64,000 nucleotides of DNA, taken from positions 4,320,001-4,384,000 of the forward strand of contig JASGJH010000001.1 of the NCBI GenBank assembly GCA_047601445.1, in the 5' to 3' direction. The position numbers and the translations under genes were made by a program. Source of the stretch: Myxococcales bacterium. GTDB taxonomy: Bacteria > Myxococcota_A > Polyangia > Polyangiales > DASUME01. Of this stretch, positions 42,401 through 62,617 are shown one piece after another; position 1 is the first letter of the stretch; each line of letters starts with the position of its first letter. The notes under the pieces are model-generated. The model saw nothing but the letters and a program-made list of their open reading frames with translations. It ran no database searches and was not told where the DNA came from.

Positions 42401-45313
42401 CGGGGACCACCAATGGCTCATCGAGCCCGTCACGAACAGGGTCGCCGCGGCGCGCGCCCCAAGCTTGCCAGCGAGCCCGACTGCCAGCTGGCTGAACGCC
42501 TGCGCTCGCGCCAACTCCCCGCGCCGCACCAGCACGACACAGAAGTTCGCGTAGGCCGGCGCGGCCAGCGCTGTGCTGCCGTGTTTCACCACCGATCGCA
42601 GCAGCCACAGCGCGAGCACGGTCCAGCGCTTCGGATCGCTGCGGAAGAACGGCGGCAAGAGCTCGAGTAGCAACGTTTGCAACGCCACCTGTTCAGGGTC
42701 TTGTGCGGGCGGGACATTCGCGAGCTCCTCGATGTTAAGGCCTGCAAGCACTCCCTCGACCTCAGCCGTGACCTGCGCGGCCGTCAGCTCGGGATCGGCC
42801 TCGAATAGCTCGAGGCCGAACAGGCGCAGCGCCTCGCTGCCCGCCTGAATGGCGCGCGGAAAGTCGAGCAGCATCGTATAGCCGAACACACGCACCTCGT
42901 AGAGCTGCGCCTTCTCCAGGCGCGTACGCGCGCTCGAGAGTGCGTGGTGCAGCAGCTCTTCTGCCTCCTCCTTCGCGCCGCTGACGAAGGCGAGCTGAGC
43001 GGCGTCGCGGTGCAGGCCGATGGCCAGCTCGTGTGCGATAGAAAAGCCGGCGGGTCCGAGCAGCGCGAGCGCACGCCGCAGGTAGACAATCGCCACCTCG
43101 TAGGCCGCACCCGTCTTGGCCCGCTCGGCTGCCCTGGCGTTGAGTTCAGCGAGCTCGAGCCGCTCGTCCGTGAGTGTGAGCAGGCTCTCGGCGCGGTTGA
43201 GTTGCTCGACCACCTCGAACAACGGAAGGGGCGTGCGCTCGCGCAGGGCCTCGCCGATGGCACGATGCAGCGAGAGTCTGCGGGCCTCGGGGAGGAGCTC
43301 GTAGGCTGCCTGCTGCACGCGATCGTGCACGAAGCGGTACGCCGGGCGCTCACGGTCCGCGTCGCGCCCGAGCGTGATCAGGTGCTCTCGGGCCGCGAAC
43401 CACAACGCCTGCGCCATCTCCGGCTCGCTCTGCGCTGCCACCCGCGCCACGAGCTCGAGCTCGAACCGGCTACCGATGCAGGCGGCCACCGTCAGGCCGA
43501 GGGCGGTCGCCTCGGGCAGCCGTCGAATGGACTGCACGAGCAGGTCGATGACGCTGTCGGGGGCAGGCAACGCGGCGATGCGCGCAAGATCCCAGGTCCA
43601 GGTGTTGGCGCCCGCGTCGAACGTCAAGCAATCCGCCCCATGCAGCATGCGCAGGAAGCGCGTGGCGAACAGCGGGTTCCCAGTGGTCTTGTGCAGCACG
43701 AGCTCTGCCAGGGGACGACAGCGCTCAGGTGGAGCACGCAGTACGTCACCGAGCATCTCGACGAAGGCGTCCACCCCGAGCGGGGCGAGGGAGATGGTGA
43801 CGACGTGACCTCCAGCGCCTCGGATCTCTTCCACCACGCAGGCCGCCGGGTGATCTCCCGCTGCCTCTTCGCTGCGCCAGGAGACGATGATCAGCAGGTT
43901 GCCGAGCTCGGCTCCGCTGAGCAAAGCGCCCAAGAGCTTGAGCGAAGCCGCGTCGGCCCACTGCAGATCATCGAAGAACAGCACGAGCGGTCGCCCCGGC
44001 TGCGCGAGGGCGCGCAGAAAGCTGGCCAGCGCGTGTTGGGTGCGGTTCTCCGCCTCGACCGGCCCCACCGGCAGGAGCGGAGGCTGCACACCGAAAAGTG
44101 CCTCGAGGCGTGGCACGATCGAAGTGAGCACACCGGCATGGGGACCGACCATCTTTCTGACCCGGTCGCTCAACTCAGAAACGGTCTGCCCGGCAGGATC
44201 GAGCCGCTCCCGCGTGAGCTCGTCAAGGGCCTGCGCAAGCACTGCGAAGGGAACGTGACGTAGCAGCGGCTGACACTTCCCTGCCGCAAAAAGCGCTTCC
44301 TCGGCAATCCGCCCGCGCAGATCCTCGACCAGCGCGGTCTTTCCCACGCCGGCCCATCCTTGCACGACCGCCAGCGTGTTCCCACCCGCGCGCACTGACT
44401 CGTACGCGGTGGCGAGCTCCGCCCGCTCTCGCTCGCGGCCGTAGAGGGACTGAGCCAGCGAGAGCTCGCGGCGGTCGAGACGGGCCAGCTCGAACGTGCC
44501 GAGGCTTCCGTCGCGCAGCCAGCGCCGCTGCGCCTCTGCGAGGTCGGCTTCCAGCGCGTCGGCCGTTTGGTAGCGCCACTCTGGCATCTTCGCGAGCAGC
44601 TTCATCACGATGTCGGAGAGCAGCTGCGGCAGGCCGGGTCGAATCGTCGCCGGCAGCGCCGGCAGGCGTGCGAGATGTCCGTGCAAGACCTCGAGCGGAT
44701 CGGTCGATGGAAATGGGGGAGCGCCCGTCAGCATTTGATAGAAGGTCGCTCCAAGCGAATACAAGTCTGCGCGCTGATCGACCCAGCGATTCGTGCGCCC
44801 TGTCTGCTCGGGGGCCACGTACGGAAGAGTCGCTTCCAGGCGGCCCGTCCCGCGAGGTAGCTCCGCGAGCCCCGTGACCACGGTCGCGAGTTCGAAGTCG
44901 ACTAGCGTCACACCACCGTGGTCGTCGAGCACGAAGTTGGCCGGGCTCACGTCGCGATGGATGATGTTTTGACGGTGGACGCCCGCAACCGCGGCCGCCA
45001 TCTGCACGGCCAGCCGCAAGAAGGCCGCCACGTCCAGGGGTGCACCGCGCAGCGTCTCCTCGATGTCCCGCGTTCCAACGTCCTCGAGAACCAACGCCAG
45101 GCACCCGTCGATCAGCTCCAGGTTGTGGGGCCGTACGACACCGGGCGCTACCAGGCGCGAGAGCAGGGCGTGCTCGTGACGCAAGCGTGAAGCGCTCTCC
45201 CCGTCGGCGCGATCGGTCCGCGCCATCTTGACGACGAACGGCTCTCCATAGCGTTCGCCGCGAAACACTGCATAGCGCGCTCCGAGGTGGATCTGCCTCA
45301 GTCCAGTCCACAT
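39404..45313 (-). CDS. Multidomain Ser/Thr kinase-AAA ATPase-GAF-PAS-histidine kinase-receiver protein
   Basis: HRDVSPAN, APEQTGR, GVGKT, FFDDLQWAD, GAF (AISLENARLY), PAS, AHDFNNLL, receiver TDIVMP. Confidence 0.93.
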   Translation of the reverse strand: MWTGLRQIHLGARYAVFRGERYGEPFVVKMARTDRADGESASRLRHEHALLSRLVAPGVVRPHNLELIDGCLALVLEDVGTRDIEETLRGAPLDVAAFLRLAVQMAAAVAGVHRQNIIHRDVSPANFVLDDHGGVTLVDFELATVVTGLAELPRGTGRLEATLPYVAPEQTGRTNRWVDQRADLYSLGATFYQMLTGAPPFPSTDPLEVLHGHLARLPALPATIRPGLPQLLSDIVMKLLAKMPEWRYQTADALEADLAEAQRRWLRDGSLGTFELARLDRRELSLAQSLYGRERERAELATAYESVRAGGNTLAVVQGWAGVGKTALVEDLRGRIAEEALFAAGKCQPLLRHVPFAVLAQALDELTRERLDPAGQTVSELSDRVRKMVGPHAGVLTSIVPRLEALFGVQPPLLPVGPVEAENRTQHALASFLRALAQPGRPLVLFFDDLQWADAASLKLLGALLSGAELGNLLIIVSWRSEEAAGDHPAACVVEEIRGAGGHVVTISLAPLGVDAFVEMLGDVLRAPPERCRPLAELVLHKTTGNPLFATRFLRMLHGADCLTFDAGANTWTWDLARIAALPAPDSVIDLLVQSIRRLPEATALGLTVAACIGSRFELELVARVAAQSEPEMAQALWFAAREHLITLGRDADRERPAYRFVHDRVQQAAYELLPEARRLSLHRAIGEALRERTPLPLFEVVEQLNRAESLLTLTDERLELAELNARAAERAKTGAAYEVAIVYLRRALALLGPAGFSIAHELAIGLHRDAAQLAFVSGAKEEAEELLHHALSSARTRLEKAQLYEVRVFGYTMLLDFPRAIQAGSEALRLFGLELFEADPELTAAQVTAEVEGVLAGLNIEELANVPPAQDPEQVALQTLLLELLPPFFRSDPKRWTVLALWLLRSVVKHGSTALAAPAYANFCVVLVRRGELARAQAFSQLAVGLAGKLGARAAATLFVTGSMSHWWSPLRSVIPELHVIAAKGIESGELMWAWYSELKVVRTLLLAGDELRSTAAVLEPLVGRPGQRGWTSQLKLYQQAIRCLQGATPQRGRFEEETESAIVRPGSHDRYALGEYATTRLQLAFVFGDVDGALGWLEQGAQHEDVLACLDIRPVFATYAALSLVAAAERGSPAERATRLARSHVFEAQLSRWAKHCPENYRHKHELLRAELERVEGGSPEPHFHAAIEAAAQAGALHEQALAQELYARFCLSQGHPHVAAQWFRGALDTWSHYGASAKVKQLEEEVVLLSLPAARRWTTPITSGEGVSFDALTLFKAAETLSSEVVLDKLLEKLMHICVEAAGAQRAALLVERDGQLRLEARLDVERGLLEVSGDHQGNGRILVSEAIVLHTLRSGEDVVLANAAEAGAFTADPYVRARASKSIVSLPVRHRDRITAVLFLENDLSSDAFTKKRLEMLRLLVVQAAISLENARLYDSLRGSEALLRDFLEGMPVGVYVVNPRGEITLANRKAIEITGAPHDPTPTLAQATMAHHIVVAGTNEAYPMERLPASRALQGETVMVDDIAVARRDRTVPIAAWATPIHGQDGAVRYAIVAFQDISAQREMETDRARLEAQLHQAQRLESIGRLSGGIAHDFNNLLTPILIYSELAIGALPEKSPIRAQIAQVRDAAESAASLTRQLLAFGRQQVLEPRELDLNQELLSFERMFRRLVREDIEVRLDLDRAIKLVLADHAQMQRVLMNLGTNAADAMPSSGTITFETRQGTLLASDVDQPNDEPPVRRAAVVLRVHDTGQGMDTITLDKLFDPFFTTKPPGKGTGLGLPTVYGIVKQHGGEMSVHSEPGRGTTFEITLPCVTDGTPLAQRSLSAGRDAVARSGGGETVLVVDDNDAVRNVVREVLEAEGYHVLAFGSSLEALDVARKLGGSLDLLVTDIVMPGMGGRELYERLAPELPHAAVLFISGYTGEYVPNEADTQAGVGRLQKPISREALCEKARALLDARSGSKG

Positions 45314-45488
45314 GACGGTTCTATGATCCCATGCCTGGCCCGCCCGGGCAGGCTCAGTCGCCAACGACTCCCGAGGCGAGACCGCAAAGCAGCGAGAACT
45401 AGTGGCGCGAGCGCGCGCCGAGCGTGAGTTTGCGAGAGAAAGGGGCGCTGCCGTGTGCGATAGTGAGCGATGAACCGATCGGAAACCT

Positions 45489-45926
45489 ATGGCCGAGATC
45501 ACCATCGTTGATGAGTTCGACGCTCTGCTGCTCCGCTACACCGTGCCGCAGGGAAGGTCCGGGCTCGCGGGCGCGGCTCTCGAGGGAGCGCAGTTGCCGG
45601 GCGCGCAGCTCGCAGGCGCAGACCTCAGCGGTGCAGATCTCTACTGGGCGTCCCTGTTTCGAGCCGATCTGCGCGGCGCCAAGCTCGACAACGCTGTGCT
45701 CTGCGGTGCGGACCTCAAGCAGGCCAATCTCGAAGGAGCGTCCCTCAAGAACGCGGACTTGGGTCTTGATCGACTCAATGGCTCTACCTCGCTCGAGGGA
45801 GCCAATCTTCGCGGCACGGACCTCCGCTGGACCAAGCTCACGGGAGCCCAATACGACGAAGCAACCCAGTTCCCTGCAGGGTTCGACCCCGCGCAAGCGG
45901 GCATGCGTCGCACGCGGAGGAGCTGA
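45489..45926 (+). CDS. Pentapeptide repeat protein
   Basis: A(D/N)LxG repeats; C-terminal [15 protein letters not shown] motif. Confidence 0.92.
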
Positions 45927-50755: not shown

Positions 50756-52087
50756 ATGGGGACCATGACGAAGGATCGGCATGCATTGCGTCTCACGCTG
50801 GCGCTCGGCCTTGCATCGCTCGCCGGTTGCGGCAGCGACGAGGGCGGGCACTCGAGCGAGAGCGATGCAGCCGACGCCGGAAGCGAGGTCGTTCTCGAGT
50901 TGTTCAGCTGGTGGAAGGCGCCGGGTGAGGCGGAGGCGCTCTCCGCTCTCATCTCCGCGCATCACGCGCGCTATCCGAACGTGTCCATCTACAACCTCGC
51001 GGTCTCCAACGAAGACGCTCCCTACGTGATGGCCGAACGCTTCGGCTTCAAATGCACAGCGAAGCGCACACTCGACACCACCGTCGACTGTCGGCGTGAC
51101 GAGAGCATCACGCCGGACCCTGTGGATCTCATGCAATGGAATCTCGGCGACGTGAAGCGCGTGTGGATTGACCAGGGCGTCAAGTTCACCGCGCTCGACG
51201 CCGTGCTCGATGAAGAGAACGTCGTCGATCAACTTCTTCCCGAAGCCCGCGAGGCCGTGACGGTAGACGGCGAGATCATCGCCCTACCCGTCGGCATCCA
51301 TCGCAACAACAACCTCATCTACAATCGGGACGTGCTCGATGTCGCCGGTGTGGACCCCGAAGGCCTCGAGACGTGGGAGGACTTTATCGCGGCCTGCGAC
51401 AAAGTTCAGACGAGCGGCAAGACCTGTCTCGCCACCGGCACCCAGGGCTGGATCATGAACATCCTGTTCGGCAATGTGGTGGCCATGACGATGGGGGCCC
51501 AGGGCTACGTCGATTACTATTCTGGGAAGAGCAGCGCCGATGACCCCAAGTTGGCCGAAGCCGTGCAGAACTTCGACCTGCTCATGCGCAAGTACGTGGG
51601 CAAGACCGCCGAGCTTCCAGGCGGATGGGACGAAGCCTGCGCGAAGCTGCAGGACGGCAAGGCTGCGTTCTACCTCCACGGCGACTGGGCTGTCGGCCTG
51701 CTCAAAGCCCGCGGCTGGGACTCCACGAACTTCGGCGTAATGGCCTCGCCCGGTAGTCAGGGCCTCTTTCTGTTCGGAGTCGATGGCTTCCTCTTGCCGG
51801 AGGGCAGCATGCACGGCGACGCAGCGCTCGAGGTGATTCGCACCTGGAGCTCGCCCGAAGCGCTGGCGGCGTTCTCGAAGGCCAAGGGGGCCACACCGCC
51901 GCGAAAGGACGTAGACCTCACCGACGACCCCCTGGCTAACGGCACTTATCAGGACCTGCTCAAGGCCGAGTACCCGCTGCCAGAGAACGACCGCGGCGTG
52001 AAGTTCGAGACCCTCGCGGAATACGTAACCGGGAAGAAGACCGTTGCCGACATCCTGACGGAGGCAAAGTCGGTCTACGCCAGGTGA
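50756..52087 (+). CDS. Carbohydrate ABC transporter substrate-binding lipoprotein (orphan)
   Basis: Lipobox LAGC, FSWW..PGEAEAL, PVGIHRNN, GKAAFYLHGDW. No permease or ATPase genes adjacent. Confidence 0.85.
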   Translation: MGTMTKDRHALRLTLALGLASLAGCGSDEGGHSSESDAADAGSEVVLELFSWWKAPGEAEALSALISAHHARYPNVSIYNLAVSNEDAPYVMAERFGFKCTAKRTLDTTVDCRRDESITPDPVDLMQWNLGDVKRVWIDQGVKFTALDAVLDEENVVDQLLPEAREAVTVDGEIIALPVGIHRNNNLIYNRDVLDVAGVDPEGLETWEDFIAACDKVQTSGKTCLATGTQGWIMNILFGNVVAMTMGAQGYVDYYSGKSSADDPKLAEAVQNFDLLMRKYVGKTAELPGGWDEACAKLQDGKAAFYLHGDWAVGLLKARGWDSTNFGVMASPGSQGLFLFGVDGFLLPEGSMHGDAALEVIRTWSSPEALAAFSKAKGATPPRKDVDLTDDPLANGTYQDLLKAEYPLPENDRGVKFETLAEYVTGKKTVADILTEAKSVYAR

Positions 52088-52121
52088 GGTCGAGGCGTTC
52101 GCGGCCAACGCGCGTCGACTC

Positions 52122-52229
52122 GACCTCCGCTGGCCCAAGCTCACGGGAGCCCAATAAGACGAAGCAACCCAGTTCCCTGCAACGTTTGATCCGGCAAGAG
52201 CGGGTATGCGTCGCGAGCGGAGGAGCTGA
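52122..52229 (+). repeat. Degenerate 108-bp direct copy of the pentapeptide gene 3' end (45819-45926), with a premature stop
   Basis: Ungapped manual alignment gives about 13 mismatches in 108 bp; TAC becomes TAA in the copy. Confidence 0.9.
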
Positions 52230-52921: not shown

Positions 52922-54184
52922 ATGACAGATCTGACGGAGTTCCTGGATTTGCTCGCAGGTGATCCCCGGCTGCGCTCGGAGTTCGCCGCGGCACCGGCCG
53001 CGACACTCGCGCGCGCTGGTGTGAACACCGAAGGGCTCGAGCTTCCAGAACGCATGGATCTCGGGGATCTGGAAGAGCGCCTGAGCACGCTCGCTGAGGT
53101 TAGCGAAACCAGCCCGGTTGTCGCCGCAGCGTCGAGCGGCTTGCACACGCCGGTCTGGTCGGGCGCCGCCGCAGAGACAGCAGTTCCCGAAGCCTCACGG
53201 CGCCGGTTGCGCCGCGGGCGGCCGCTTCCTGGCATACATTGTCCGTCAAGACTCGAGAGCCGCCGTGAGGACGACTCGCGGGAGGCCGACGGTTCCTCCA
53301 ACCGTGGTGTCTCTCCTTTCAGGGGCGACGGTGAGGTCAAGAATCACCGCGCGGACGCCGGCCGAAAGCCATCAAAGGTCGAGAAGACTGCGGTCACCGA
53401 GGCGACGCCGTCGCTCAAGGGCGCATCGGAGGCCCCCCTGCCGGGCGCGTGGTTCGCGACGAACGGCACCGCGATCAGTCGCGCGCTCAGCATTCGTCCG
53501 CAGGGAGTCTCGATGGTGTCCGAGGCAATCTTCGGTCAGGACGATCGGCAGCACGTCCCCGATGCTTCAGCGCCACCCTACAGCTGGTTGTGCGCGCTCG
53601 TGATCACCGCTGGCAATGGTACCCGCTGGTTCGGCACCGGCTGGCTCGCAGGGCCGCGGCTCGTCGTCACTGCCGGACATTGTGTCTTCATGCCGACGCA
53701 GGGTGGGTGGGCTCGCGAGATCACGGTTCTGCCGGGTAGAAATGGCGCTTTGACCGAGCCGCGTATCCGCGCAAGCCAGTTTCACTCCGTGGAAGGCTGG
53801 GTAGTCAATGGACGGTCCGAGGTCGACTACGGAGCCATCGTACTGCCCGAGGGCTCGCTCGCGGCTGACTGGGGCTACTTCGGCTACGGCGCGCTCGACG
53901 ATGGCGAGCTGCTTGAGTCGCTTTTCAACATAGCCGGATATCCGATCGACAAGGAGCAGGGAACGCTGTGGGCTCAGGTCAACAATCTTCTGACGCTTTC
54001 AGGGGAAGTACTGATCTACGAGAATGACACCTACGGCGGCATGAGCGGATGTCCCGTCATTCGGTGGGACGAGTTGGACTACGTAGCTGTCGGAATCCAC
54101 AACTACGGTGACCTCGTAGGCAACCGCGCAACACGCATCAATCAATCCGTCTTCGACAACATCAATTTCTGGAAGACCTTGTGA
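52922..54184 (+). CDS. V8-like glutamyl endopeptidase (S1B) with an N-terminal NHLP-leader-like domain
   Basis: Catalytic TAGHC / DYG / DTYGGMSG; VGIH; mature-type start E-AIFGQDDR. N-terminus FLDLLAGDPRLRSEFAAAPAATLARAGV. No signal peptide. Confidence 0.85.
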   Translation: MTDLTEFLDLLAGDPRLRSEFAAAPAATLARAGVNTEGLELPERMDLGDLEERLSTLAEVSETSPVVAAASSGLHTPVWSGAAAETAVPEASRRRLRRGRPLPGIHCPSRLESRREDDSREADGSSNRGVSPFRGDGEVKNHRADAGRKPSKVEKTAVTEATPSLKGASEAPLPGAWFATNGTAISRALSIRPQGVSMVSEAIFGQDDRQHVPDASAPPYSWLCALVITAGNGTRWFGTGWLAGPRLVVTAGHCVFMPTQGGWAREITVLPGRNGALTEPRIRASQFHSVEGWVVNGRSEVDYGAIVLPEGSLAADWGYFGYGALDDGELLESLFNIAGYPIDKEQGTLWAQVNNLLTLSGEVLIYENDTYGGMSGCPVIRWDELDYVAVGIHNYGDLVGNRATRINQSVFDNINFWKTL

Positions 54185-54197
54185 CAAGGAGCGGCCT

Positions 54198-55040
54198 GTG
54201 AACATTTACATTTGGGATGACGACACCACCGCAACCTCCACGCCCGAAGCTGGCTCGCTCAAAGCCACGCCCAACAGCGCGATGGCGACTGTCGCAGGCA
54301 CGATCGCCCGCCCAGGAGGGAGCGCAGCGTTCCTCGACATCCACTACCACGGAAAGGAAGGCATCTCCTCGCTGCCCTCGGCCACTGGTGCGGTCGCACG
54401 CCCGGGAGGCAGCGCGGCGTTCCTCGACATCCACTACCACGGAAAGGAAGGCATCTCCTCGCTGCCTGCGGCTGCGGCACGCCCAGAGGCCGGCGCAGCA
54501 GTCTCTGCCAGCAGCCTGGGCCGCGCAGCGGTCGCTGCACCGATACGCCCGGGAGGCAGCGCGGCGTTCCTCGACATCCACTACCACGGAAAGGAAGGCA
54601 TCTCCTCGCTGCCCTCGGCCACTGGTGCGGTCGCACGCCCGGGAGGCAGCGCGGCGTTCCTCGACATCCACTACCACGGAAAGGAAGGCATCTCCTCGCT
54701 GCCTGCGGCTACGGCACGCCCAGAGGCCGGCGCAGCAGTCTCTGCCAGCAGCCTGGGCCGCGCAGCGGTCGCTGCACCGACACGCCCGGGAGGCAGCGCG
54801 GCGTTCCTCGACATCCACTACCACGGAAAGGAAGGCATCTCCTCGCTGCCCTCGGCCACTGGTGCGGTCGCACGCCCGGGAGGCAGCGCGGCGTTCCTCG
54901 ACATCCACTACCACGGAAAGGAAGGCATCTCCTCGCTGCCTGCGGCTACGGCACGCCCAGAGGCCGGCGCGGACACCGGTGAGCCGTCCTCCGGCTCGCT
55001 ACACATCGGCGCGTCCCTCGACATTCATTTCGTGGGTTGA
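54198..55040 (+). CDS. Putative multicore RiPP precursor peptide (6 x RPGGSAAFLDIHYHGKEGISSLP)
   Basis: RBS AAGGAG at 54186-54191, GTG start 13 nt after the protease stop, stop overlapping the next gene (TTGA). Sits between the protease and three radical-SAM genes. Confidence 0.8.
   Translation: MNIYIWDDDTTATSTPEAGSLKATPNSAMATVAGTIARPGGSAAFLDIHYHGKEGISSLPSATGAVARPGGSAAFLDIHYHGKEGISSLPAAAARPEAGAAVSASSLGRAAVAAPIRPGGSAAFLDIHYHGKEGISSLPSATGAVARPGGSAAFLDIHYHGKEGISSLPAATARPEAGAAVSASSLGRAAVAAPTRPGGSAAFLDIHYHGKEGISSLPSATGAVARPGGSAAFLDIHYHGKEGISSLPAATARPEAGADTGEPSSGSLHIGASLDIHFVG
54309..54970 (+). repeat. Higher-order tandem repeat: 237-bp unit x ~2.8, each with two 69-bp cores
   Basis: Cores start at 54309, 54399, 54546, 54636, 54783 and 54873 (alternating 90/147-bp spacing) and are near-identical at DNA level. 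Confidence 0.95.
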
Positions 55041-57046
55041 TCGTGGCGGCGCCGACGATTGCGCTCGTCAGCATGCCGTTCAATGTCACCGTCATGCCGC
55101 CGATCGGGCTTGGAACCCTTAGCGCAATATTGCGTGAGGCTGGCCTGCCCTGCACGACATATCACCAGAACCTCGAGCTGCTACCGTGGCTTGGGGTGCC
55201 TCTCAATGAGGCTTCGGAGATCTTTGATGAGATCAGCTATCTGTGGGACTTCTTGCCTGGAGAATGGCTATTCTCGCCGCAGGTCTCGGCTGAACAGGAC
55301 GCCGCATACCTGCGGTCGCTCGACGAGGACGCCGGCGTGCGCCCGCAGCTCATCGAAGTTCTTGCCCAGCTGCGCAGGATCGCTCCGCATTTCATCGCGC
55401 GCTGCGCAAGCCAGATCGCTGACGCTGGGCATGACATCGTCGGCTTCACGAGCTCATTCATGCAGACCCAGCCGAGCCTCGCAGTGGCCCGGCACCTCAA
55501 GCAGCTGCGGCCGGAAGTAACGATCCTCTTTGGCGGCTCCAATGCCTTTGGGACCATGGGCCGCGCCGTGCTCGAATACTGCGATGCCATCGATGTGGTC
55601 GCCCACGGTGAAGCCGACCGCCTAATCGTCCCACTTGTGCACGCCTTGCGCGAAGGCACCAGCCTGCGGCAGCTACAAGGCATCTCCTATCGCGACGTCT
55701 CGGGCATCGTCGACCAGTCCGTCGACTCGACGCGCGTGGCGATGGACGACCTACCGGTCCCTGATTTCGATGACTACTTTTGCACTCTCGATCGGCTACG
55801 GAGAGACCATCGCCAGCCGCTGGATCTCCCGCGCTTCGTGCCCATCGAGACCGCACGCGGATGCTGGTGGGGCGAACGATCGCATTGCACCTTCTGCGGC
55901 CTCAACGCTGACCGCATGCGGTTCCGATCCAAATCGCCCGAGCGTGCGCTGCATGACTTCCGCGACCTCTACCGTCGATACGGGGTCGGCAACTTTTTCG
56001 CTGTCGACAACATCATTGATCACAAGTATTTCGACACTGTCCTCGCGAGTCTCGCCGAACAGCGTGAGCGCTTCTTCATCCACTACGAGATCAAGGCAAA
56101 CCTCTCGCGCAAGCAGGTCGAGTCGCTGTACGCAGCAGGGGTTCACAAGATCCAGCCGGGAATCGAGAGCCTGTCCACACCGGTGCTCAAGCTCATGCGC
56201 AAGGGTATCACTGCCCTGCAGAACATCCAGACGCTCCGCTGGCTCACGGAGCACGGCCTGCGGACCTCCTGGTACATGCTGTATGGCTTCCCCGGCGAGA
56301 ATCTAGCCGCGTACAAGGAGGTCGCGAATCTCCTGCCGCGCCTCACGCATATCGTACCGCCAAATGAGCTAGCGCCGGTCTACATCGAGCGCTTCAGCCC
56401 ATACCAGATGAGACCAGACCAGTACGGGATCCGGCTGACCGGTCCGGCGCGGTGGTATCGGCATGCCTTCCCCGGCATCGGTGACGATCAGCTCGCCGAG
56501 TTAGCCTATCGCTTTGAATACGAGGAGCCGGGCCGTGATCCCGCGCTCACCCGCTTCATCGAGCACGAGCTGCGGCCATTGCTGACCGCGTGGCAACGGC
56601 GCTACGCCGCTGAAGGGCCCACACTTGGCGTCATCCACGGCCCCGAAGAGTCGCTGCTGGTGCTAGGCCGCCTCACAAATCCGATTCGGGTGTTGCGGCT
56701 GGACGCACCCGTCGCTGCGGTGCTGCGGGCAGCGGATCAAATCGTCTCCGCAACGACGCTCGACAAACTCGGCGACGGCCCGGTCGGCGCAGTTAACGGT
56801 CCGATGCTTGACGAGGCTGACTACCATGTCGCGGTGCGGCGTCTCGCCGGCCGGGGCTTGTCCCTGGAAACGTCGACGCCAACGCCACTAGACCTGCGAG
56901 GCGCGGCACTGGTAGCGAAACTTGAGACACTAGGGCTTGTGTTGCAAGAGGGTAACCGAGTGCTGTCGCTTCCAATCAATTTGTCCCGCGTCGTCGAGCG
57001 CCAGAACGCGGCCGCGGTGCCGTTGGTGTCCAGTGCTGCCTACTAG
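55037..57046 (+). CDS. RiPP maturation radical-SAM C-methyltransferase (B12-dependent, class B) #1
   Basis: LVSMPF...PPIGLGTL, GEWLFS, VGFTSSFMQ, ETARGCWWGERSHCTFCGLN (CX7CX2C), IQPGIESLS. Confidence 0.92.
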   Translation: MIVAAPTIALVSMPFNVTVMPPIGLGTLSAILREAGLPCTTYHQNLELLPWLGVPLNEASEIFDEISYLWDFLPGEWLFSPQVSAEQDAAYLRSLDEDAGVRPQLIEVLAQLRRIAPHFIARCASQIADAGHDIVGFTSSFMQTQPSLAVARHLKQLRPEVTILFGGSNAFGTMGRAVLEYCDAIDVVAHGEADRLIVPLVHALREGTSLRQLQGISYRDVSGIVDQSVDSTRVAMDDLPVPDFDDYFCTLDRLRRDHRQPLDLPRFVPIETARGCWWGERSHCTFCGLNADRMRFRSKSPERALHDFRDLYRRYGVGNFFAVDNIIDHKYFDTVLASLAEQRERFFIHYEIKANLSRKQVESLYAAGVHKIQPGIESLSTPVLKLMRKGITALQNIQTLRWLTEHGLRTSWYMLYGFPGENLAAYKEVANLLPRLTHIVPPNELAPVYIERFSPYQMRPDQYGIRLTGPARWYRHAFPGIGDDQLAELAYRFEYEEPGRDPALTRFIEHELRPLLTAWQRRYAAEGPTLGVIHGPEESLLVLGRLTNPIRVLRLDAPVAAVLRAADQIVSATTLDKLGDGPVGAVNGPMLDEADYHVAVRRLAGRGLSLETSTPTPLDLRGAALVAKLETLGLVLQEGNRVLSLPINLSRVVERQNAAAVPLVSSAAY

Positions 57047-59006
57047 TGCCCATAGCCTGCGGGTCGCGCTGGTCGAGATGCCGTTCGGGCCCGTGGCATG
57101 GCCGTCGATAGGCACCTCGGTACTCAAGCCGCAGCTGGCGCGGCGCGGCCACCGCGCCGAAGTTGTGTACCTCAACCAACTCATGCTCGAGCTCCTTGGG
57201 CCGCCGGACTCGGACACGGTTGGGCGATACCAGGCTATCTCAGACGCGTTCGGTGTTCATCTCGGCGAGTGGGTATTCGCCCGTGCCGCGTTCCCCGACT
57301 GCCGAGACCAGGCGGCACTCGATGACGAGTACCTCTCGCGGCTACGGACCGGCGGTTTCGATGCGGCGACGTTGTCGGCAGCCCTCGACCTTCGCGACCG
57401 CGCTGATGAGTTTCTGACCCGATGCCTTGCCGAAGTGCCGTGGTCCGACCTCGACGTAGTCGGCTTTGCCAACTCCTACTCTCAGCTCAACGCATCGCTA
57501 GCGCTCGCGCGACTGCTGAGCATGAGCTTCCCCGCGCTGCGCCTCATCATCGGCGGCTGCGGCTGCGCCGACGTCATGGGTGTGGCCACGTTGCGCGTAT
57601 GCGAGCACCTGTGCGCCGCAGTGCTGGGCGAAGGCGACGAGATCATCGCCGACCTCGCGGAGGCGGTCGTCAGCAACGACGAGGCGCGACTGCGCGCGAT
57701 ACCGGGCATCGCGTTTCGAAGTCACACCGGCAAGATTGAGCTCGGTGCACCTCAACGCCGCGTCACGGATCTCGACGCGCTCCCGGTGCCCGACTATAGC
57801 GATTACAGCCGCAATCTTGCGCCCGCACTCCGAACGTTCCTGCCTTTCTACATTCCCGTCGAGGCATCGCGCGGCTGCTGGTGGGGTGCGAAGCACCATT
57901 GCACATTTTGCGGACTCAACCCGCAGCGCATCTCCTACGCGCGTAAGGAACCGGCCCGTTTTCTCGCCGAGATCGCGACGCTTACGGCAACCTACCAGCC
58001 GCGCCGCTTTATGGCAGTCGACAACATCATGCCGCACGACTACCACACCGCGGTCATCCCAGAGCTGACTGAAAGCTCTGGAGGAGCCGAGTTCTTCTTC
58101 GAAGTGAAAGCCAACTTTCGCCGCGAGCAGCTCGAGGCTTTCACCCGCGCCAACGTGCGACAGATCCAACCCGGCATCGAAAGCCTGCGCACCCCGGTGC
58201 TGAAGCTGATGGAAAAGGGCACGACGGCGATCGCCAACGTCTACACGCTGCGTTTGTGCGAAGACCTCGGTGTGCGTGCCCACTGGTCTATCCTCTTCGG
58301 CTTCGCTGGCGAGACCCTCGACGACTACCGTGTCTCGAGTGAGCTCACCAGGCGCATTATGCATCTGCGGCCGCCGCTGGCGCTGGTGCCGGTTGAAGTC
58401 GAGCGCTTCTCACCGATGTACCGACGACCCGCCGAGCATGGGCTCACCGGTCTACGCCCCTCGACTTGGTACTACTTCTGTCACCCCGTCTCAGCGGAGG
58501 TGCTGGCAGACTTATCCTATCGCTTCGTCGCCGACTTCGTCGGCCGTCCGGCAGAGCTATCAAGCTCCATTACTACGATGCTGGAGCCGCTCGTAGAGCG
58601 TTGGCGAGCAAGCTACGGCGACGGTGCCCAGGCCCTGTGGACGCCGGCCGGGCGGAACCACGAGGTACGGCGCCGGGTCGGTGGCGAGGAATGGCGTTAC
58701 ATTCTCGACACGGTGTGTACGGCGCTGCTCGATGAACTGGACGAGCCGCGCGGCCTACGCGCCCTTTTCCCCCAAGCCGCGACCACCCTTCACGAACCGT
58801 ATCTCGATCCCGAGTTTCTGCGTACGGCCTCGTCAGCGATGTACGAGCGCGAGGTCACTCTGCGCGCCTCTTCGAAGGTTGACGCATACCAGCAGCTCCT
58901 ACGTCACGGACTGATCGTCCAGGAAAGCGGCCACGCGGTTAGTGTCGTTTGCCGGCGGAAGCCCTCTGCGCGGCGCGAGCTGCGCGTGCTCGCCGCAGAA
59001 CCGTAA
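57033..59006 (+). CDS. RiPP maturation radical-SAM C-methyltransferase (B12-dependent, class B) #2
   Basis: LVEMPF...PSIGTSVLK, GEWVFA, EASRGCWWGAKHHCTFCGLN (CX7CX2C), IQPGIESL. GTG start at 57033 inferred from overlap with the previous stop. Confidence 0.92.
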   Translation: MLPTSAHSLRVALVEMPFGPVAWPSIGTSVLKPQLARRGHRAEVVYLNQLMLELLGPPDSDTVGRYQAISDAFGVHLGEWVFARAAFPDCRDQAALDDEYLSRLRTGGFDAATLSAALDLRDRADEFLTRCLAEVPWSDLDVVGFANSYSQLNASLALARLLSMSFPALRLIIGGCGCADVMGVATLRVCEHLCAAVLGEGDEIIADLAEAVVSNDEARLRAIPGIAFRSHTGKIELGAPQRRVTDLDALPVPDYSDYSRNLAPALRTFLPFYIPVEASRGCWWGAKHHCTFCGLNPQRISYARKEPARFLAEIATLTATYQPRRFMAVDNIMPHDYHTAVIPELTESSGGAEFFFEVKANFRREQLEAFTRANVRQIQPGIESLRTPVLKLMEKGTTAIANVYTLRLCEDLGVRAHWSILFGFAGETLDDYRVSSELTRRIMHLRPPLALVPVEVERFSPMYRRPAEHGLTGLRPSTWYYFCHPVSAEVLADLSYRFVADFVGRPAELSSSITTMLEPLVERWRASYGDGAQALWTPAGRNHEVRRRVGGEEWRYILDTVCTALLDELDEPRGLRALFPQAATTLHEPYLDPEFLRTASSAMYEREVTLRASSKVDAYQQLLRHGLIVQESGHAVSVVCRRKPSARRELRVLAAEP

Positions 59007-59020
59007 CTCAGGAGGTAACG

Positions 59021-60079
59021 ATGGAGTCCGCAGTCCTTCTCACCACGATGCGCTGCAACATTCGCTGCGAGCACTGCTCGGTCGATTCCCACCCACACAG
59101 ACAGGAGCGCCTCGATCAGGCGCGCGCCCTCTCGCTCGTCGACGGCCTCAGCCGCATTCCTGGCCTCCGCTACATCGACGTAACCGGCGGCGAACCCATG
59201 CTCCACGCTGACGACGTCATTGCCATCGCTCGCGCAGCCCGCGCCCGTGGCAAGGCCGTTCGCCTGGTCAGCAACGGGTTTTGGGCCCACACGGTCGAGC
59301 GCGCCCGGGACACGCTGGTTGCTCTCAAGAATGCCGGGGTAACGTCAGTCGGACTGTCCGTCGACGAGTGGCACCTGCCCTTCATTCCACCGTCGACGAT
59401 TCACAACTACCTCGTTGCCTGCCGCGACGTTGGTCTCCTCCCCCTCCTCTCGTGCGTAGTCGCCGCCAGCGTGGGCGACGGAGATTGGCCGGCGAAGGTG
59501 ATCGAACTGCTTGCCCGTTACGGGATCGAACGCAGTTCCTGCGTCGAGCTGTACGCCTGGAGCCAGGGGCGCGAGTCCGACGCCGACGAGCGGGATGCGC
59601 GGGCCGGCGTAGTCCTCATCAACTGGCAGTTCCTTACGGGCGAGGGCCGCGCCCGCGACCTCGGTGTCCCGTCCCAGCCCATCAATGTTGCGCCAGACGA
59701 GCCGTGCCGCATGGCCGGCCGCCTCCCAACCATCGACGAGGCCGGTCGGCTCTTCCCCTGCTGCTCGCCATGGATTTCGCGCAAAGCCCACGCCCTCGCC
59801 GTCGTTACCGGCGACGATGTGCCGAGCGCCGTCGCCGCCATGCAACGCGAGCCCCTCGTCCAGGTCATCCATCGCATCGGTCCGCGCGCCATGCTCGAAG
59901 AGCTTCGTCGTCGAGGTTGGGCCCTCCCACACAACCAATCCGGCATTTGCAACCAGTGCGGCGTCATGCTCGACGCCGTCCCGCTCGCCGTCCTTCGCGA
60001 GGTCGCCGCCGAGCTCCTCCACGCCCGCGTCACGGTTGCCCTTGGCCTCCAGCCACGCACCAACCCGCCCCGCGCCTAA
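59021..60079 (+). CDS. Radical-SAM enzyme, YydG/EpeE peptide-epimerase-like
   Basis: RBS AGGAGG; CNIRCEHC; TGGEP; LVSNGFW; SVDEWHLPFI; GRLFPCCSP; ICNQC. Confidence 0.8.
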   Translation: MESAVLLTTMRCNIRCEHCSVDSHPHRQERLDQARALSLVDGLSRIPGLRYIDVTGGEPMLHADDVIAIARAARARGKAVRLVSNGFWAHTVERARDTLVALKNAGVTSVGLSVDEWHLPFIPPSTIHNYLVACRDVGLLPLLSCVVAASVGDGDWPAKVIELLARYGIERSSCVELYAWSQGRESDADERDARAGVVLINWQFLTGEGRARDLGVPSQPINVAPDEPCRMAGRLPTIDEAGRLFPCCSPWISRKAHALAVVTGDDVPSAVAAMQREPLVQVIHRIGPRAMLEELRRRGWALPHNQSGICNQCGVMLDAVPLAVLREVAAELLHARVTVALGLQPRTNPPRA

Positions 60080-60163: not shown

Positions 60164-62617
60164 CTAGGCCCTGCGCGCTGTCGCAATCCATTGCGTGGCG
60201 TGCGGGGTCGAACCGTCGGTACACGTTGAGGCCAGCTCCTCGCGGACGCGGTAGCCACGGCGGAGCCATCGGATACTGCCGTGAAGGTATTGTCGCACGA
60301 GCGTGTGAAGAGGCTCTTCAGCCCGAGGTCGACTTCGCCTCAGCTCCACCTGCTGAAAGCCAGCGCTTTCGAGCATGCTGCGGAGAGCCCCGCTAGTCAT
60401 CCCCATCGTCTTGGTCTTCACAGACTCGCCGCAGGCTTCATAAATGGCAGCATAGGCAGGGCTGTCTTGTGTCCAGACCCCTACGACCAGCCTACCCGAT
60501 GGCTCGAGAAGGTCGTGGAGCCGTGCAAGCGCCGTCCCGGCGTGCTCGCCAAGGTGTTGGATCAGGTGCTGCGCAAAGATCACGTCGTAGCGCTGCGCGG
60601 CTTGGACCTTGAGGACGTCGTTGACAGCGTACTCAATTTTGCGAGCGCCCCTGACCTCGTGCGCAACTCGAATGGCGTCGCGACTCGAATCGAATCCGTG
60701 GATTGCAGCGGAGCGGAATTTGTCAGCTGCGACGCGTGCAACGATGCCGGAACCGCAGCCCGCGTCCAAGATATATCGGGGCTTGGAGAGGTCGGAGCAA
60801 GCGTTCAACAGCTCCCTAGCGCACGGCAGGAACAGCGACTGTACCAGGCCGGCCTCCAGGTTGCGCTCCTTCACGAGCATGCTCGCGCGGTCGCGGTGTG
60901 CGCGTTGGCGCAGCACCGTGGCGAGCGCTTCGTTTCCCGCCAGTAGTTTGGCCGTTCCTTTCAGTTGGCTTTTCGCCTGCGCACCCTTAAGCAGAGACGA
61001 GAGTGCTCGAGGCTCGGTCCTATCGCCGTTGCTCAGCCTGACTTCGACGTGGTAGTCGTCCCAGGTGAAAAGCGACACGCGAAACGGCTGCTTCTTCTCG
61101 TGGCCGCGAAGAGCACGTCGCAGGAGCTGATAGCCCGAAGAACTCCTACGCCAGTACGTGACTTCGTCGACATCATCGGGTGCGTCCGCGATCCAGAGCT
61201 TGAGCTCGCGGCAGTAAAGTCTTGCCCCATTGTGCGAGCAATCGTCGACTACCCCTCCAGCCTCGACCACGATTCGGAACGAACCAGCGGGAGCAGGAGG
61301 AATTGCCTTGTGAGCCGCCCCGGTAATTGCCTCAGCCGCTTCAGGTCGCAGGCGTTCCGACTCGAGGTCGGCCGCCCCAGCCTGGCGTTGAAGCAGCGCG
61401 CTATGCAGCTTCGGAGAATGCTTCGCAAGAGGGCTCTCACCGCCCGTGCGGCAAACTACGCGGTGAAAGGCACGCGGTATCCCTTCACCGCGGAACGTAA
61501 CGAGATAGAGCGGCCCCTCCCGTCGTGTCTGGTCGAGGAGCACCACGTGATCGGGCTCTCCCTGCTCATAGCGAAACCGGCCCCCGCTGACGCGAAGCAC
61601 CCTCCAGGCGAGGAGGCGATGCAGCGGTTGCGTCCGAAAGGACATGGGGTTGGGGGAGCGTCCACGCCAGGTCACATCGATGCCTGGCCGCAGGTTACTC
61701 TCGAGAAACTCATCCAGATCCTTCCACGACGTCTTGAGCAACCCGTACTTCTCGAAAACCAACGCGGAGCGGTCGAGGCTATGGTGTTCGTTGCCTCCTG
61801 CCTCGGCCACCTTCCATTCGAGATCCACAATCGTTGTTCTCACCGGCTCGAGAATCGAGCAGGCGTGGTCAAGGAAGGGCCCGTGATCGAAGTTGACCAA
61901 CGTCGCCCGCAAGAAGTCCACGGCGCCCCCGTCTCCATCGCCACAGATCAACAGCTTTGTATGCTTGTCCAAGGTCTCGAGCGGATGCTGCGCCAACGCG
62001 TCCATCTGCCAGTAGGACAGGCGTGGCAGCGTGGGCAAGGTGCGCTCGATTCCGAATCCGAGCGCGAGCACCACCACTTCAGGCGGTTTCGGATACTTGC
62101 CGCCAGTGAGGCCCACGAGCTCGACTTTGCCGTCCCGTGTCAGGCGAAAGTCGGTGATCTGCCGCGGCATCGCGCCCATGAGTGCTTCGTACTGCGTGAC
62201 AATCTGCGTGCGTACGTCGTGGGCGCTTCCCGCGAACCAGTTCAGGATCGGCAGGTTCGCCGAAGCCATCGTACTATGCTCCGCGGGCCATTCGACGATG
62301 CGAGGATGCAGGAATCGATGGTGGCAACCTAGCTGCAGGTGCATCGGCTCAGCCGCGCGATCGAACACCTCGACCTTGGCACCAAGCACGCGAAGAGCAG
62401 CAGCACAGGTCAACCCACCAGCACCGGATCCAATGACCCATGCGCGCTTGCCCTCGACTAACTTGGCTTCATGGAGTGCCCAGACCAGATTGAGAGCGCG
62501 GCATTGCTGCGCCGCGACATTGATGCGCGGGCGGCGCTCGCTAAAGAGGACAAAGACGTTGTCACATCCATCCACCGAGGCTTCCTGCCTGAGCCGCTCG
62601 CTGTCGCTGTCCATCAT
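60164..62617 (-). CDS. FAD/NAD(P)-binding oxidoreductase fused to a pYEATS-like domain and a class I SAM methyltransferase
   Basis: QQCRALNL, VIGSGAGG, LALGFG, CGDGDGG; middle DEVTY...FTWDDYHVEV; C-terminal ILDAGCGSG. Confidence 0.7.
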   Translation of the reverse strand: MMDSDSERLRQEASVDGCDNVFVLFSERRPRINVAAQQCRALNLVWALHEAKLVEGKRAWVIGSGAGGLTCAAALRVLGAKVEVFDRAAEPMHLQLGCHHRFLHPRIVEWPAEHSTMASANLPILNWFAGSAHDVRTQIVTQYEALMGAMPRQITDFRLTRDGKVELVGLTGGKYPKPPEVVVLALGFGIERTLPTLPRLSYWQMDALAQHPLETLDKHTKLLICGDGDGGAVDFLRATLVNFDHGPFLDHACSILEPVRTTIVDLEWKVAEAGGNEHHSLDRSALVFEKYGLLKTSWKDLDEFLESNLRPGIDVTWRGRSPNPMSFRTQPLHRLLAWRVLRVSGGRFRYEQGEPDHVVLLDQTRREGPLYLVTFRGEGIPRAFHRVVCRTGGESPLAKHSPKLHSALLQRQAGAADLESERLRPEAAEAITGAAHKAIPPAPAGSFRIVVEAGGVVDDCSHNGARLYCRELKLWIADAPDDVDEVTYWRRSSSGYQLLRRALRGHEKKQPFRVSLFTWDDYHVEVRLSNGDRTEPRALSSLLKGAQAKSQLKGTAKLLAGNEALATVLRQRAHRDRASMLVKERNLEAGLVQSLFLPCARELLNACSDLSKPRYILDAGCGSGIVARVAADKFRSAAIHGFDSSRDAIRVAHEVRGARKIEYAVNDVLKVQAAQRYDVIFAQHLIQHLGEHAGTALARLHDLLEPSGRLVVGVWTQDSPAYAAIYEACGESVKTKTMGMTSGALRSMLESAGFQQVELRRSRPRAEEPLHTLVRQYLHGSIRWLRRGYRVREELASTCTDGSTPHATQWIATARRA

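Follow-up and report, generated by a model that had tools for sequence, protein, structure and literature searches.

A five-gene locus with a repeat protein

The window, that is, the whole 64,000-nucleotide stretch of Myxococcales DNA analysed here, contains five consecutive genes for a protease, a repeat protein, two B12-dependent radical SAM enzymes (MT1 and MT2) and a third radical SAM enzyme related to EpeE (Table 1). The junctions from gene 1 to gene 5 are a 13-nt gap, a 4-nt overlap (or a 2-nt gap with the alternative start of gene 3), a 14-nt overlap and a 14-nt gap, and these ORF coordinates bear out the original prediction of one co-oriented unit whose genes neither overlap nor lie apart by more than 14 nt. 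A mechanically called MT2 ORF beginning at 56937 would overlap MT1 by 110 nt, and its start is probably too far upstream. As had also been predicted, the five genes and the five adjoining ORFs scanned contain no YcaO, LanM or C39 domain; two C39 peptidase genes are located elsewhere in the genome. The promoter and terminator scan gave no signal above chance, and neither second copies of the genes (paralogues) nor a stand-alone leader was found elsewhere in the genome.

Table 1. Coordinates of genes and features, in positions of the window
Feature	Position	Strand	Remark
Gene 1, glutamyl-endopeptidase-like S1 protease	52922-54184	+	420 aa
NHLP-clan leader-like helical domain, protease residues 1-62	52922..53107	+	sub-threshold matches
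Glu201, immediately N-terminal to the mature protease domain; predicted site of self-activation	53522..53524	+	invariant in 16/16
Gene 2, putative multicore precursor (repeat protein)	54198-55040	+	280 aa; GTG start; AAGGAG upstream
Repeat 1 (RPGGSAAFLDIHYHGKE)	54309..54359	+	
Repeat 2	54399..54449	+	
Repeat 3	54546..54596	+	
Repeat 4	54636..54686	+	
Repeat 5	54783..54833	+	
Repeat 6	54873..54923	+	
Conserved C-terminal element (LHIG..LDIH), degenerate seventh copy	54999..55037	+	
Gene 3, MT1, B12-dependent radical SAM enzyme	55037-57046	+	TTG start, or GTG at 55043
Gene 4, MT2, second TIGR03975 enzyme	57033-59006	+	GTG start
Gene 5, EpeE/YydG-like radical SAM enzyme	59021-60079	+	AGGAGG upstream; predicted peptide epimerase

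The repeat protein and the protease

The putative precursor encoded by gene 2 contains six exact copies of RPGGSAAFLDIHYHGKEGISSLP, with AAFLDIHYHGK as the repeat, and a degenerate C-terminal SLDIHFVG; its N-terminal strand is NIYIW and its C-terminus is LHIGASLDIHFVG. At the DNA level the gene consists of a 237-bp unit in 2.8 copies with 98% matches, and the six motif copies are identical in DNA, so that their number may have grown recently or may be an artefact of assembly. The six AFLDIHYHG copies of Rhodobacter maris have six different DNA spellings, which indicates that the repeat is preserved as protein rather than as a DNA repeat, and this divergent codon spelling rules out a CRISPR- or REP-like element.

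From 25 listed matches to the precursor, 19 were examined and 15 proved to be precursor-like relatives; four were unrelated, and the six left out were long proteins of 25-31% identity. Two motif types, FLDIHYHG and FLDINYG, occur in these relatives, with 2-8 repeats per precursor and linkers of ~12 to 55 residues. All 78 distinct repeats contain AxxDIxY, with its Tyr, although the search pattern determined this count in part; Phe occurs in 71/78 and gives way to Leu in terminal copies. In the HYHG subfamily the C-terminal element reads GLHIGxAALLDIHYHG and stands directly before the stop codon. The precursor had been predicted to be His-rich; the FLDIHYHG repeats are indeed present, but the FLDINYG subfamily makes His dispensable, and His-richness thus does not define the family. 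In genome contigs the FLDINYG pattern gave no match, and at two loci with a single HYHG-pattern match each, L046 and L047, none of the five genes was matched. The precursor has no recognisable leader: no NHLP model matched any of 18 precursors, a leader profile was found in 0/18, and none of the NCBIfam precursor models fits these 18. In an AlphaFold2 model of low confidence (mean pLDDT 54, pTM 0.51), the six motifs and both termini form beta-strands, with the motifs scored best; Foldseek found no match to a solved fold, and no usable Atlas match was obtained.

The gene 1 protease is of the trypsin fold (S1) and V8/Glu-C-like, with a glutamyl endopeptidase (1p3c, E 6e-13) as its closest PDB entry. 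The residues H253, D302, S375, T370, H393 and E201 are kept in 16/16 aligned clade members, and alignment shows that 1p3c has the same Thr and His in the S1 pocket, two residues with a role in acid specificity. With its His-Asp-Ser triad and pocket Thr/His, the sequence resembles that of a glutamyl endopeptidase, for which cleavage after Glu/Asp is predicted, and relatives are named 'V8-like Glu-specific endopeptidase' in their source records. The protease has a long propeptide but, by eye, no evident signal peptide, and in the alignment mature 1p3c begins two to three residues past Glu201.

The N-terminal domain of the protease resembles leaders of the NHLP clan. The same 35-55 residues give sub-threshold matches to TIGR04509, NF038399 (Os1348), the IniB N-terminus, PF14407 and Nif11, the window copy scoring 18 bits against a cut-off of 34 (TIGR04509), while the best clade E values are 5e-6 (NF038399) and 5e-5; Atlas matches were below the Atlas score bars. 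A hydrophobic-x4-Leu motif is located at residues 45-50, with no Gly-Gly afterwards, and recurs in 14/15 full-length protease leader-like domains. Such a domain was found in 14/119 protease relatives screened, and the segment behind it is conserved in neither sequence nor length. A frameshift hiding a small separate precursor in gene 1 was considered and rejected, since leader-like domain and protease are read in a single open frame in 14 database relatives. Neither the predicted acid specificity of the protease nor the leader-like domain was part of the original prediction.

The position of acidic residues in the precursors was analysed in 18 of 20 sequences, P0012, almost identical to L052, and P0028, whose motifs are degenerate, being left out. 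Asp or Glu lies within the first seven residues after the motif in 28/30 distinct short linkers (10000 shuffles: mean 13.3, maximum 22) and within the last nine linker residues in only 5/30 (shuffle mean 16.5), and with one linker per precursor the post-motif acid is found in 16/18 against 7.9 by shuffle; as the sequences are related and not independent, these shuffle tests overstate significance. Because Asp/Glu stands behind the motif, an acid-specific protease would free one-motif peptides. Simulated cutting after Asp and Glu, with the motif Asp spared, yielded one-motif pieces in 17/18 precursors, and the pieces predicted for the window precursor are three identical 30-mers, two 36-mers and one 37-mer. 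Cutting at Glu only gave one-motif pieces in 3/18 precursors, the window included, and multi-repeat pieces in 15/18, so that the model requires cutting at Asp as well, with the sparing of the motif Asp assumed. In the precursor fragment P0019, acids are missing between the repeats. Moreover, Lys/Arg occurs four to seven residues upstream of the motif in 28/30 linkers and Gly at -3 in 73/78 repeats, which makes alternative cut sites possible, and the post-motif acid could instead be structural.

Radical SAM enzymes and the distribution of the cassette

Two B12 radical SAM methyltransferases had been predicted, and both enzymes pass TIGR03975 (546.7 bits for MT1 and 471.8 for MT2, cut-off 281.85). 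The CX7CX2C motif, C276, C284 and C287 in MT1, is present in 28/28 of the first MT1 rows and in 5/5 MT2. The MT1 model (pLDDT 94) is closest to TsrM, CysS, TokK and OxsB (Z 20-21.6 over ~400 residues) and also matches B12-binding domains; with PF02310, MT1 scores below the cut-off, the L052 orthologue of MT2 passes (38.1 vs 32.1) and the window MT2 has no match. MT2 is 36.6% identical to MT1 over 525 residues, carries GGCGC in the B12-domain loop in 5/5 orthologues and forms a separate long branch in a FastTree phylogeny, in which MT1 belongs to a 28-row clade with support 99 (79 rows: first- and second-tier MT1 matches minus the window's database copy, every third of the remainder, and five MT2). 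CX7CX2C B12 enzymes C-beta-methylate peptides (PMC5682303; 10.1101/2024.01.23.576971). The C-terminal domain of MT1 comprises three strands and then helices, with a clade-specific insert; from this order of secondary structure in the models, we infer that the C-terminal domains of MT1 and MT2 may be RRE-like (PqqD-type). Pfam gave no match there, and the fold search mostly covered residues up to 524.

The closest PDB entry to gene 5 is EpeE (profile E 3.5e-36), and TIGR04078 (YydG) is the best family for 30/30 members of its clade (best E 3.7e-30). The enzyme carries CX3CX2C and auxiliary-cluster Cys at 229, 247, 310 and 313, of which C229 and C247 are found in 30/30 and C310 and C313 in 29/30. 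With a numbering offset of 25 relative to the EpeE PDB chain, itself inferred, Cys248 corresponds to EpeE C223, the hydrogen donor on Val and Ile (PMC13012085), and is present in 29/30 aligned relatives. The predicted EpeE-like identity is thereby strengthened, despite a window score of 102.3 bits, below the TIGR04078 cut-off of 300. The proton-relay residue D210 of EpeE is absent, the aligned position 235 being Met in 16 sequences, Leu in 13 and Val in 1; the nearby T237 (30/30) and D239 (29/30) could be its substitutes. The family is discrete, with 29 matches at E <= 8e-88 and the next one at 3e-23.

The same gene order, with the repeat protein, was found in 4/4 full-length loci with available DNA, namely in Yoonia, Pseudophaeobacter, R. 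maris and one metagenome contig, and three incomplete loci have the same order as far as they extend. A repeat ORF had been expected to accompany homologous radical SAM genes, and all four full-length gene 5 relatives have one, together with two TIGR03975 genes and a protease. Since the whole five-gene set recurs in other genomes, its assembly is not due to chance; and since 43/45 loci, distant or partial radical SAM matches, have no match to the other four genes, the association is specific. Parts were also tied indirectly to common sources through identical lengths of the longest contig, all four searched parts in three cases (15136, 39736 and 382814), three in two (103647 and 8113) and two in two (11079 and 11944). 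Of 15 precursors checked, nine were linked to an enzyme and six were not (short contigs or no size record). Flanking genes differ among loci L001, L002, L049 and L052. The epimerase was not found in nine genomes of the same genus (72-99% complete, fragmented) or in 400 sampled genomes of the phylum, and a plasmid collection gave only two distant matches of ~25% identity. The cassette appears to be self-contained and sporadically distributed.

Interpretation and comparison with known systems

Taken from sequence, the cassette probably represents an undescribed multicore RiPP family whose products are predicted to bear C-methyl groups and D-residues, possibly with the leader supplied in trans. 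Gene 2 would be translated as a leaderless chain of 2-8 repeats, in which MT1 and MT2 would C-methylate unactivated carbons of the motif, with A, F, L/V, D and I as candidate residues and with separate targets for each enzyme, as in PoyB/PoyC or the bottromycin set. In each repeat the EpeE-like enzyme, donating hydrogen from Cys248, would invert one or two aliphatic residues, of which the invariant Ile or the Leu/Val are the likeliest. The protease would activate itself at Glu201 and then cut behind the post-motif Glu/Asp, the motif-internal Asp being spared through methylation or an adjacent D-residue, and peptides of ~20-45 residues would be released with the modified motif close to the C-terminus. 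The leader-like domain would most likely dock the protease on the modifying enzymes and may substitute for the leader absent from the precursor. More tentatively, and to our minds doubtfully, this NHLP-like domain may bind the recognition domains of the B12 enzymes in trans, activate them and tether the protease; on the same uncertain footing, a single machine would methylate, epimerise and cut the leaderless repeat protein, and its acid-specific S1 protease, as well as its EpeE-type epimerase from outside Bacillota, would be without precedent among the RiPP pathways of the literature searched. The weakest step is the role of the product, which may be an amphipathic, self-assembling beta-strand peptide; as no immunity or export gene travels along, a clavusporin-type surface-active or structural peptide is favoured over a pore-forming toxin.

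Several alternatives should be weighed against this reading. The repeat protein may be modified and left largely uncut, with motifs stacked as beta-strands into a fibre or solenoid (a functional amyloid or a metal-binding His/Tyr ladder) and the protease merely trimming conserved E-S/A sites in long linkers. We think this unlikely: the strands modelled at all motifs and termini, the conserved strand-like ends, the lack of an exporter in the cassette, the multi-repeat pieces left by Glu-only cutting and the presence of Glu in 21/23 long linkers vs 21/49 short ones are in its favour, but the fold model has low confidence and matches no solved fold, the strict D/E position right after the motif suits unit release, and both copy number and linker length vary. 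It is unlikely that one B12 enzyme, rather MT2 than MT1, cross-links the motif aromatics (Phe, Tyr, His) into a small macrocycle, an idea that is compatible with the remainder of the preferred reading. In its favour, the B12 radical SAM enzyme PbsB links one aromatic side chain to another, Tyr being among its possible substrates (PMC12257519), Tyr is invariant and Phe frequent in the motif, and MT2 has both a long branch and an unusual loop sequence, GGCGC. Against it, both enzymes here pass TIGR03975 and carry the CX7CX2C of known C-beta methyltransferases, the terminal copies replace Phe by Leu, and the main text on PbsB has no 'CX7' (PMC12257519).

Cyanobactin precursors contain internal recognition sequences, and the motif may be one, with the variable Ala/Val/Pro/Thr-rich linkers as the methylated and epimerised cores. 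Small aliphatic residues, on which PoyB/PoyC and MpcB usually act (PMC5682303; 10.1101/2024.01.23.576971), abound in the linkers, and the motif is strand-forming, like RRE-bound leader motifs (PMC10858898), on a precursor with no other leader; yet no acid cut site separates the motif from its upstream linker, where acids are depleted, the linkers, unlike the three conserved enzymes, have little sequence in common between taxa, and the final motif copy stops at the stop codon with nothing beyond, which makes this quite unlikely. It is more improbable still that the leader-like domain is a relic of an old precursor-protease fusion, either vestigial or marking the propeptide as the substrate, with the repeat protein accessory. 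A TIGR03975 enzyme of the sister clade, at locus L060, adjoins an ordinary-looking precursor with an LxxxxL..GG junction (by eye; no family match), so that a leader of this kind was probably part of the ancestral substrate, and the propeptide contains several E-S/A sites. Against this, the region behind the leader domain is unconserved while the repeat motif is nearly invariant, and a vestige is unlikely to be retained in 14 database proteases and that of the window, from alphaproteobacteria to this genome. Least probable of all, the system has already been described in some paper or supplement: R. maris was sequenced long ago and its MT1 bears the TIGR03975 name, but the Yoonia precursor is annotated 'hypothetical protein' and no NCBIfam model fits the precursors. 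A literature search covering few subscription journals and no supplements found no characterised cluster, in agreement with the original prediction that enzyme set and precursor are not a described family; in the literature searched, the motif strings occur in no paper, none connects glutamyl endopeptidases to both RiPPs and radical SAM enzymes, and none links R. maris to RiPPs.

If the multicore reading is right, the cassette is a compact, fully encoded route to undescribed peptides with predicted C-methyl groups and D-residues, with cultured carriers in R. maris JA276 and Yoonia sp. R78084. The serine proteases of RiPP maturation listed in a 2026 paper all belong to S8 or S9 (PMC12957482); the cassette would add a trypsin-fold protease and extend EpeE chemistry beyond Bacillota. 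Should the leader act in trans from the protease, the cassette would be a natural example in which B12 methyltransferases and an epimerase modify a precursor with no leader of its own, with a bearing on enzyme activation by leaders. It would then also be of use in engineering: any peptide with the short motif might be modified, in many copies per gene.

Compared with characterised systems, the cassette does not fit the definitions of proteusin, epipeptide or clavusporin clusters. With the proteusins (poy, aer; PMC5682303) it shares two CX7CX2C B12 C-methyltransferases and a radical SAM epimerase, here predicted to act on one ribosomal peptide, and putatively an NHLP-type leader domain in the cluster; compared by motif and family, the TIGR03975 pair is of the PoyB/PoyC type. 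However, the proteusin precursor itself carries the NHLP leader, with LxxxxL and Gly-Gly, and one core, whereas here the NHLP-like domain is on an S1 protease, the precursor is multicore, and the predicted epimerase belongs to the EpeE type, whose auxiliary cluster is missing from the PoyD type (PMC13012085). Among solved structures, the epipeptide enzyme EpeE (epeXEPAB, Bacillus subtilis) is nearest to gene 5, and its hydrogen-donor Cys and four auxiliary Cys align, but D210 is lost, the TIGR04078 cut-off is not reached, EpeP and EpeAB are absent from genes 1-5 and their neighbours, two methyltransferases are extra, and the precursor is multicore rather than single-core; epipeptides are reported to be restricted to Bacillota (PMC13012085), while the cassette occurs outside them. 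In the clavusporins (mpc, Streptomyces clavuligerus), a CX7CX2C B12 radical SAM enzyme beta-methylates an amphipathic, strand-like peptide and a dedicated serine protease is present; mpc has a single core with leader and follower, an S9 peptidase, a transporter and a DUF5825 partner, the last three absent from genes 1-5, whereas the cassette combines repeats and an S1 protease with two full predicted methyltransferases and a predicted epimerase. WprA/WprB/WprP likewise combines a radical SAM precursor of repeated motifs (WPR) with release by a dedicated serine protease (PMC12957482), but with cyclophane chemistry, an S9 protease, three repeats and neither B12 enzymes nor an epimerase. Finally, the glutamyl endopeptidases (V8, Bacillus intermedius 1p3c) share with gene 1 the fold, the triad, the S1-pocket Thr/His and a propeptide ending at Glu (for gene 1 by prediction), and differ in that gene 1, with no evident signal peptide, carries a putative NHLP-clan domain and lies inside a putative RiPP cassette.

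Layout, genomic setting and recurrence of the cassette

The five co-oriented genes, encoding an S1 protease, a repeat precursor, the B12 radical SAM enzymes MT1 and MT2, and an EpeE-like radical SAM enzyme, were found at the positions originally predicted, and the tight operon spacing was borne out: genes 1 and 2 lie 13 nt apart, genes 2 and 3 overlap by 4 nt, genes 3 and 4 overlap by 14 nt, and 14 nt separate genes 4 and 5. The host genome (9.5 Mb, one contig) holds no second copy of gene 1, 2 or 5 and, elsewhere, no further TIGR03975 member above cut-off; it encodes CobS, four MYXO-CTERM matches, which make a myxobacterium the probable host, and two C39 peptidase genes, both distant from the cassette. 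Tetranucleotide usage of the cassette is mildly atypical, an equal deviation occurring in 6% of 332 windows. The pentapeptide-repeat remnant listed in the table could be the trace of a rearrangement or insertion at this point.

Positions of the cassette genes (starts) and of other features in the window and at related loci
Feature	Position	Strand	Remark
Gene 1, protease	52922	+	
Gene 2, precursor	54198	+	
Gene 3, MT1	55037 (or 55043)	+	
Gene 4, MT2	57033	+	
Gene 5, EpeE-like	59021	+	
Pentapeptide-repeat gene remnant	52083-52208		just upstream of cassette; 69% identity to C-terminus of gene 45489-45926
FAD/NAD-binding Rossmann region + C-terminal class I methyltransferase	60164-62617	-	817-aa fusion, convergent to cassette; not seen adjoining other cassettes
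Large Ser/Thr kinase-AAA ATPase fusion	28494-32561	-	
Large Ser/Thr kinase-AAA ATPase fusion	39404-45505	-	also histidine kinase and receiver domains
Trypsin peptidase	19089-20678	+	not recurring with cassette as far as seen
M54 peptidase	22252-23088	-	not recurring with cassette as far as seen
S9 peptidase	37362-39323	+	not recurring with cassette as far as seen
Downstream of metagenome cassette L052	L052:7241-10994		aspartyl protease immediately after epimerase, then nuclease, exonuclease, KfrA plasmid protein
PapB-like radical SAM/SPASM gene (below cut-off)	L001:1785-3248		~800 bp upstream of Yoonia cassette; absent from other cassettes
Sister-clade TIGR03975-like enzyme, Acidobacteria MAG	L060:2083-4553		small LxxxxL..GG ORF encoded divergently

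Searching with gene 5 returned 45 loci, among them two full-length relatives at 47%. These two, from a Pseudophaeobacter MAG and from Yoonia sp. R78084, are the only loci of the 45 that match the other four genes, and they do so in identical order. The neighbourhood mining proposed with the prediction finds the repeat ORF recurring with the enzymes and the protease. In addition, the Rhodobacter maris JA276 cassette was recovered through the DNA pattern of the motif, and a two-repeat pattern in metagenomes yielded one full cassette (L052) and its truncated near copy (L053). Two further truncated cassettes, both with the FLDINYG motif, cover protease and precursor (L054) or these and the start of MT1 (L055). 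The flanking genes differ at every locus, and the surroundings of L052 are a mobile-element setting.

Among 1.84 billion representatives, a precursor search matched 25; of these, 19 were fetched and 15 proved precursor-like, one of them from a Burkholderiaceae MAG. The epimerase family is sharply delimited (29 matches, beyond which E-values worsen by 64 orders of magnitude), the MT1 clade comprises 28 rows of the tree, and the N-terminal domain of gene 1 is present in 14 of 119 protease relatives. As an indirect link, records of precursor, protease, MT1 and epimerase all share a longest contig of equal size at 15136, 39736 and 382814, three of the four do so at 103647 and 8113, and two at 11079 and 11944. 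Searches of 9 same-genus genomes and of 400 genomes of the phylum did not recover the epimerase. The patchy spread of the cassette across distant groups suggests horizontal movement. The cassette is very probably a functional unit.

Precursor repeats and the predicted acid-specific protease

The window precursor contains six exact RPGGSAAFLDIHYHGKEGISSLP copies in units alternating between 30 and 49 residues, with a degenerate end. The motif occurs 91 times in 20 sequences; in the 78 copies that are distinct when flanks are included, A, D, I and Y are invariant (D, I and Y being fixed by the search pattern), Phe occurs in 71, Gly lies three residues before the motif in 73, and His and Asn are divided 64/14. 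The six R. maris copies are written in six DNA spellings and are therefore under selection as protein. In the HYHG subfamily, the final copy runs up to the stop codon, and no NCBIfam precursor model fits the precursors. An 89-aa relative, P0028, has degenerate motifs with His or Cys replacing Tyr and Asp, representing either a decaying copy or variant chemistry.

An acidic residue stands among the first seven positions after the motif in 28 of the 30 distinct short linkers (10000 shuffles: mean 13.3, maximum 22) and is rarer than expected in the nine residues preceding the next motif (5/30; shuffle mean 16.5); with one linker taken per precursor, the post-motif acid is found in 16/18 against 7.9 expected from shuffles. 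When cuts are placed after Asp and Glu except for the motif Asp, 17 of 18 precursors yield one-motif pieces; with cuts after Glu only, 3 of 18 do, the window's included. A basic residue four to seven places ahead of the motif is equally regular (28/30), and cut sites other than the acids may exist.

The catalytic domain of gene 1 is closest to glutamyl endopeptidase 1p3c, and its triad, together with the pocket Thr and His that we take to set acid specificity, is conserved in all 16 members of the protease clade. In RiPP maturation, S8 and S9 are given as the only serine proteases known (PMC12957482). Residues 1-62 of gene 1 show below-cut-off matches to five NHLP-clan leader-type models, and the Atlas leads are NHLP and Franean1_4349 clusters, with scores under its bars. 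NHLP leaders are described as binding enzymes through LxxxxL, four residues ahead of Gly-Gly (PMC10858898). A hydrophobic-x4-Leu motif is conserved in 14 of 15 full leader-like domains, and GG or GA following it is absent in 15 of 16 rows. A profile of the domain matched 0/18 precursors and nothing else in the host genome. Since the leader-like domain sits on the protease, none is found in precursors, and the small ORF adjoining a sister-clade methyltransferase (L060) has, on visual inspection, an ordinary LxxxxL..GG junction, the leader appears from sequence to have shifted from substrate to protease; that it acts in trans from there is conceivable but less likely than not. The small ORF has no family match. 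The sister clade of about 22 proteins, with two pairs on equal-sized contigs (5376 and 5457), seems to be a further RiPP family that lacks a description.

Modifying enzymes

MT1 and MT2 both pass the TIGR03975 profile, as predicted. The MT1 model is of high confidence (pLDDT 94), with a fold similar to TsrM, CysS, TokK and OxsB, and its last domain has three strands then helices, in the same order as an RRE; from this model we infer an RRE-like domain. It bears an insert of ~25 residues missing from generic TIGR03975 members, with a similar one in MT2, and a Pfam search of the C-terminal domains gave no match. CX7CX2C enzymes such as PoyB/PoyC, the bottromycin set and MpcB are reported to perform C-beta methylation (PMC5682303; PMC11285071; 10.1101/2024.01.23.576971), and PbsB, a B12 radical SAM enzyme, is reported to join aromatic rings instead (PMC12257519).

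The EpeE-like assignment of gene 5 was supported: TIGR04078 is its best family, although at one third of the cut-off score. Its alignment with EpeE spans both domains (E 3.5e-36). EpeE is described as using C223 as hydrogen donor and D210 as proton relay, targeting Val and Ile, with Bacillota given as the range (PMC13012085). The Cys matching C223 and four auxiliary ligands are conserved in 29-30 of 30 aligned relatives, and D210 is not conserved among them.

Proposed pathway and relation to known systems

The sequences show co-inheritance, the enzyme families, the catalytic residues and the placement of acids. In the pathway proposed from them, the precursor would be C-methylated and epimerised inside AFLDIxY and cut by acid specificity into units of about 20-45 residues, and the protease would dock on the modifying enzymes through its leader-like domain; as a whole, this mechanism is somewhat probable. 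The main rival holds that the product is an intact modified fibre protein. In its favour, a low-confidence AlphaFold2 model gives every motif a beta-strand, and strand-like motif relatives lie at both precursor ends; against it, the post-motif acids are placed as cutting between motifs would have them. Product function is the weakest part of the cutting pathway; because no exporter or immunity gene accompanies the cassette, our best guess is a self-assembling or surface-active product.

The prediction that this is not a described family stands in the literature searched, which comprised few subscription papers and no supplements: the searches turned up neither a matching characterised cluster nor a description of the system, motif strings included. 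Genome-mining supplements could list such clusters. Judged against that literature, the cassette is a real, undescribed multi-gene RiPP family. In its workings it resembles a cross between proteusins, for the methyltransferase pair together with an epimerase, epipeptides, for the epimerase type, and multicore systems. Features that define proteusins, epipeptides and clavusporins are lacking.
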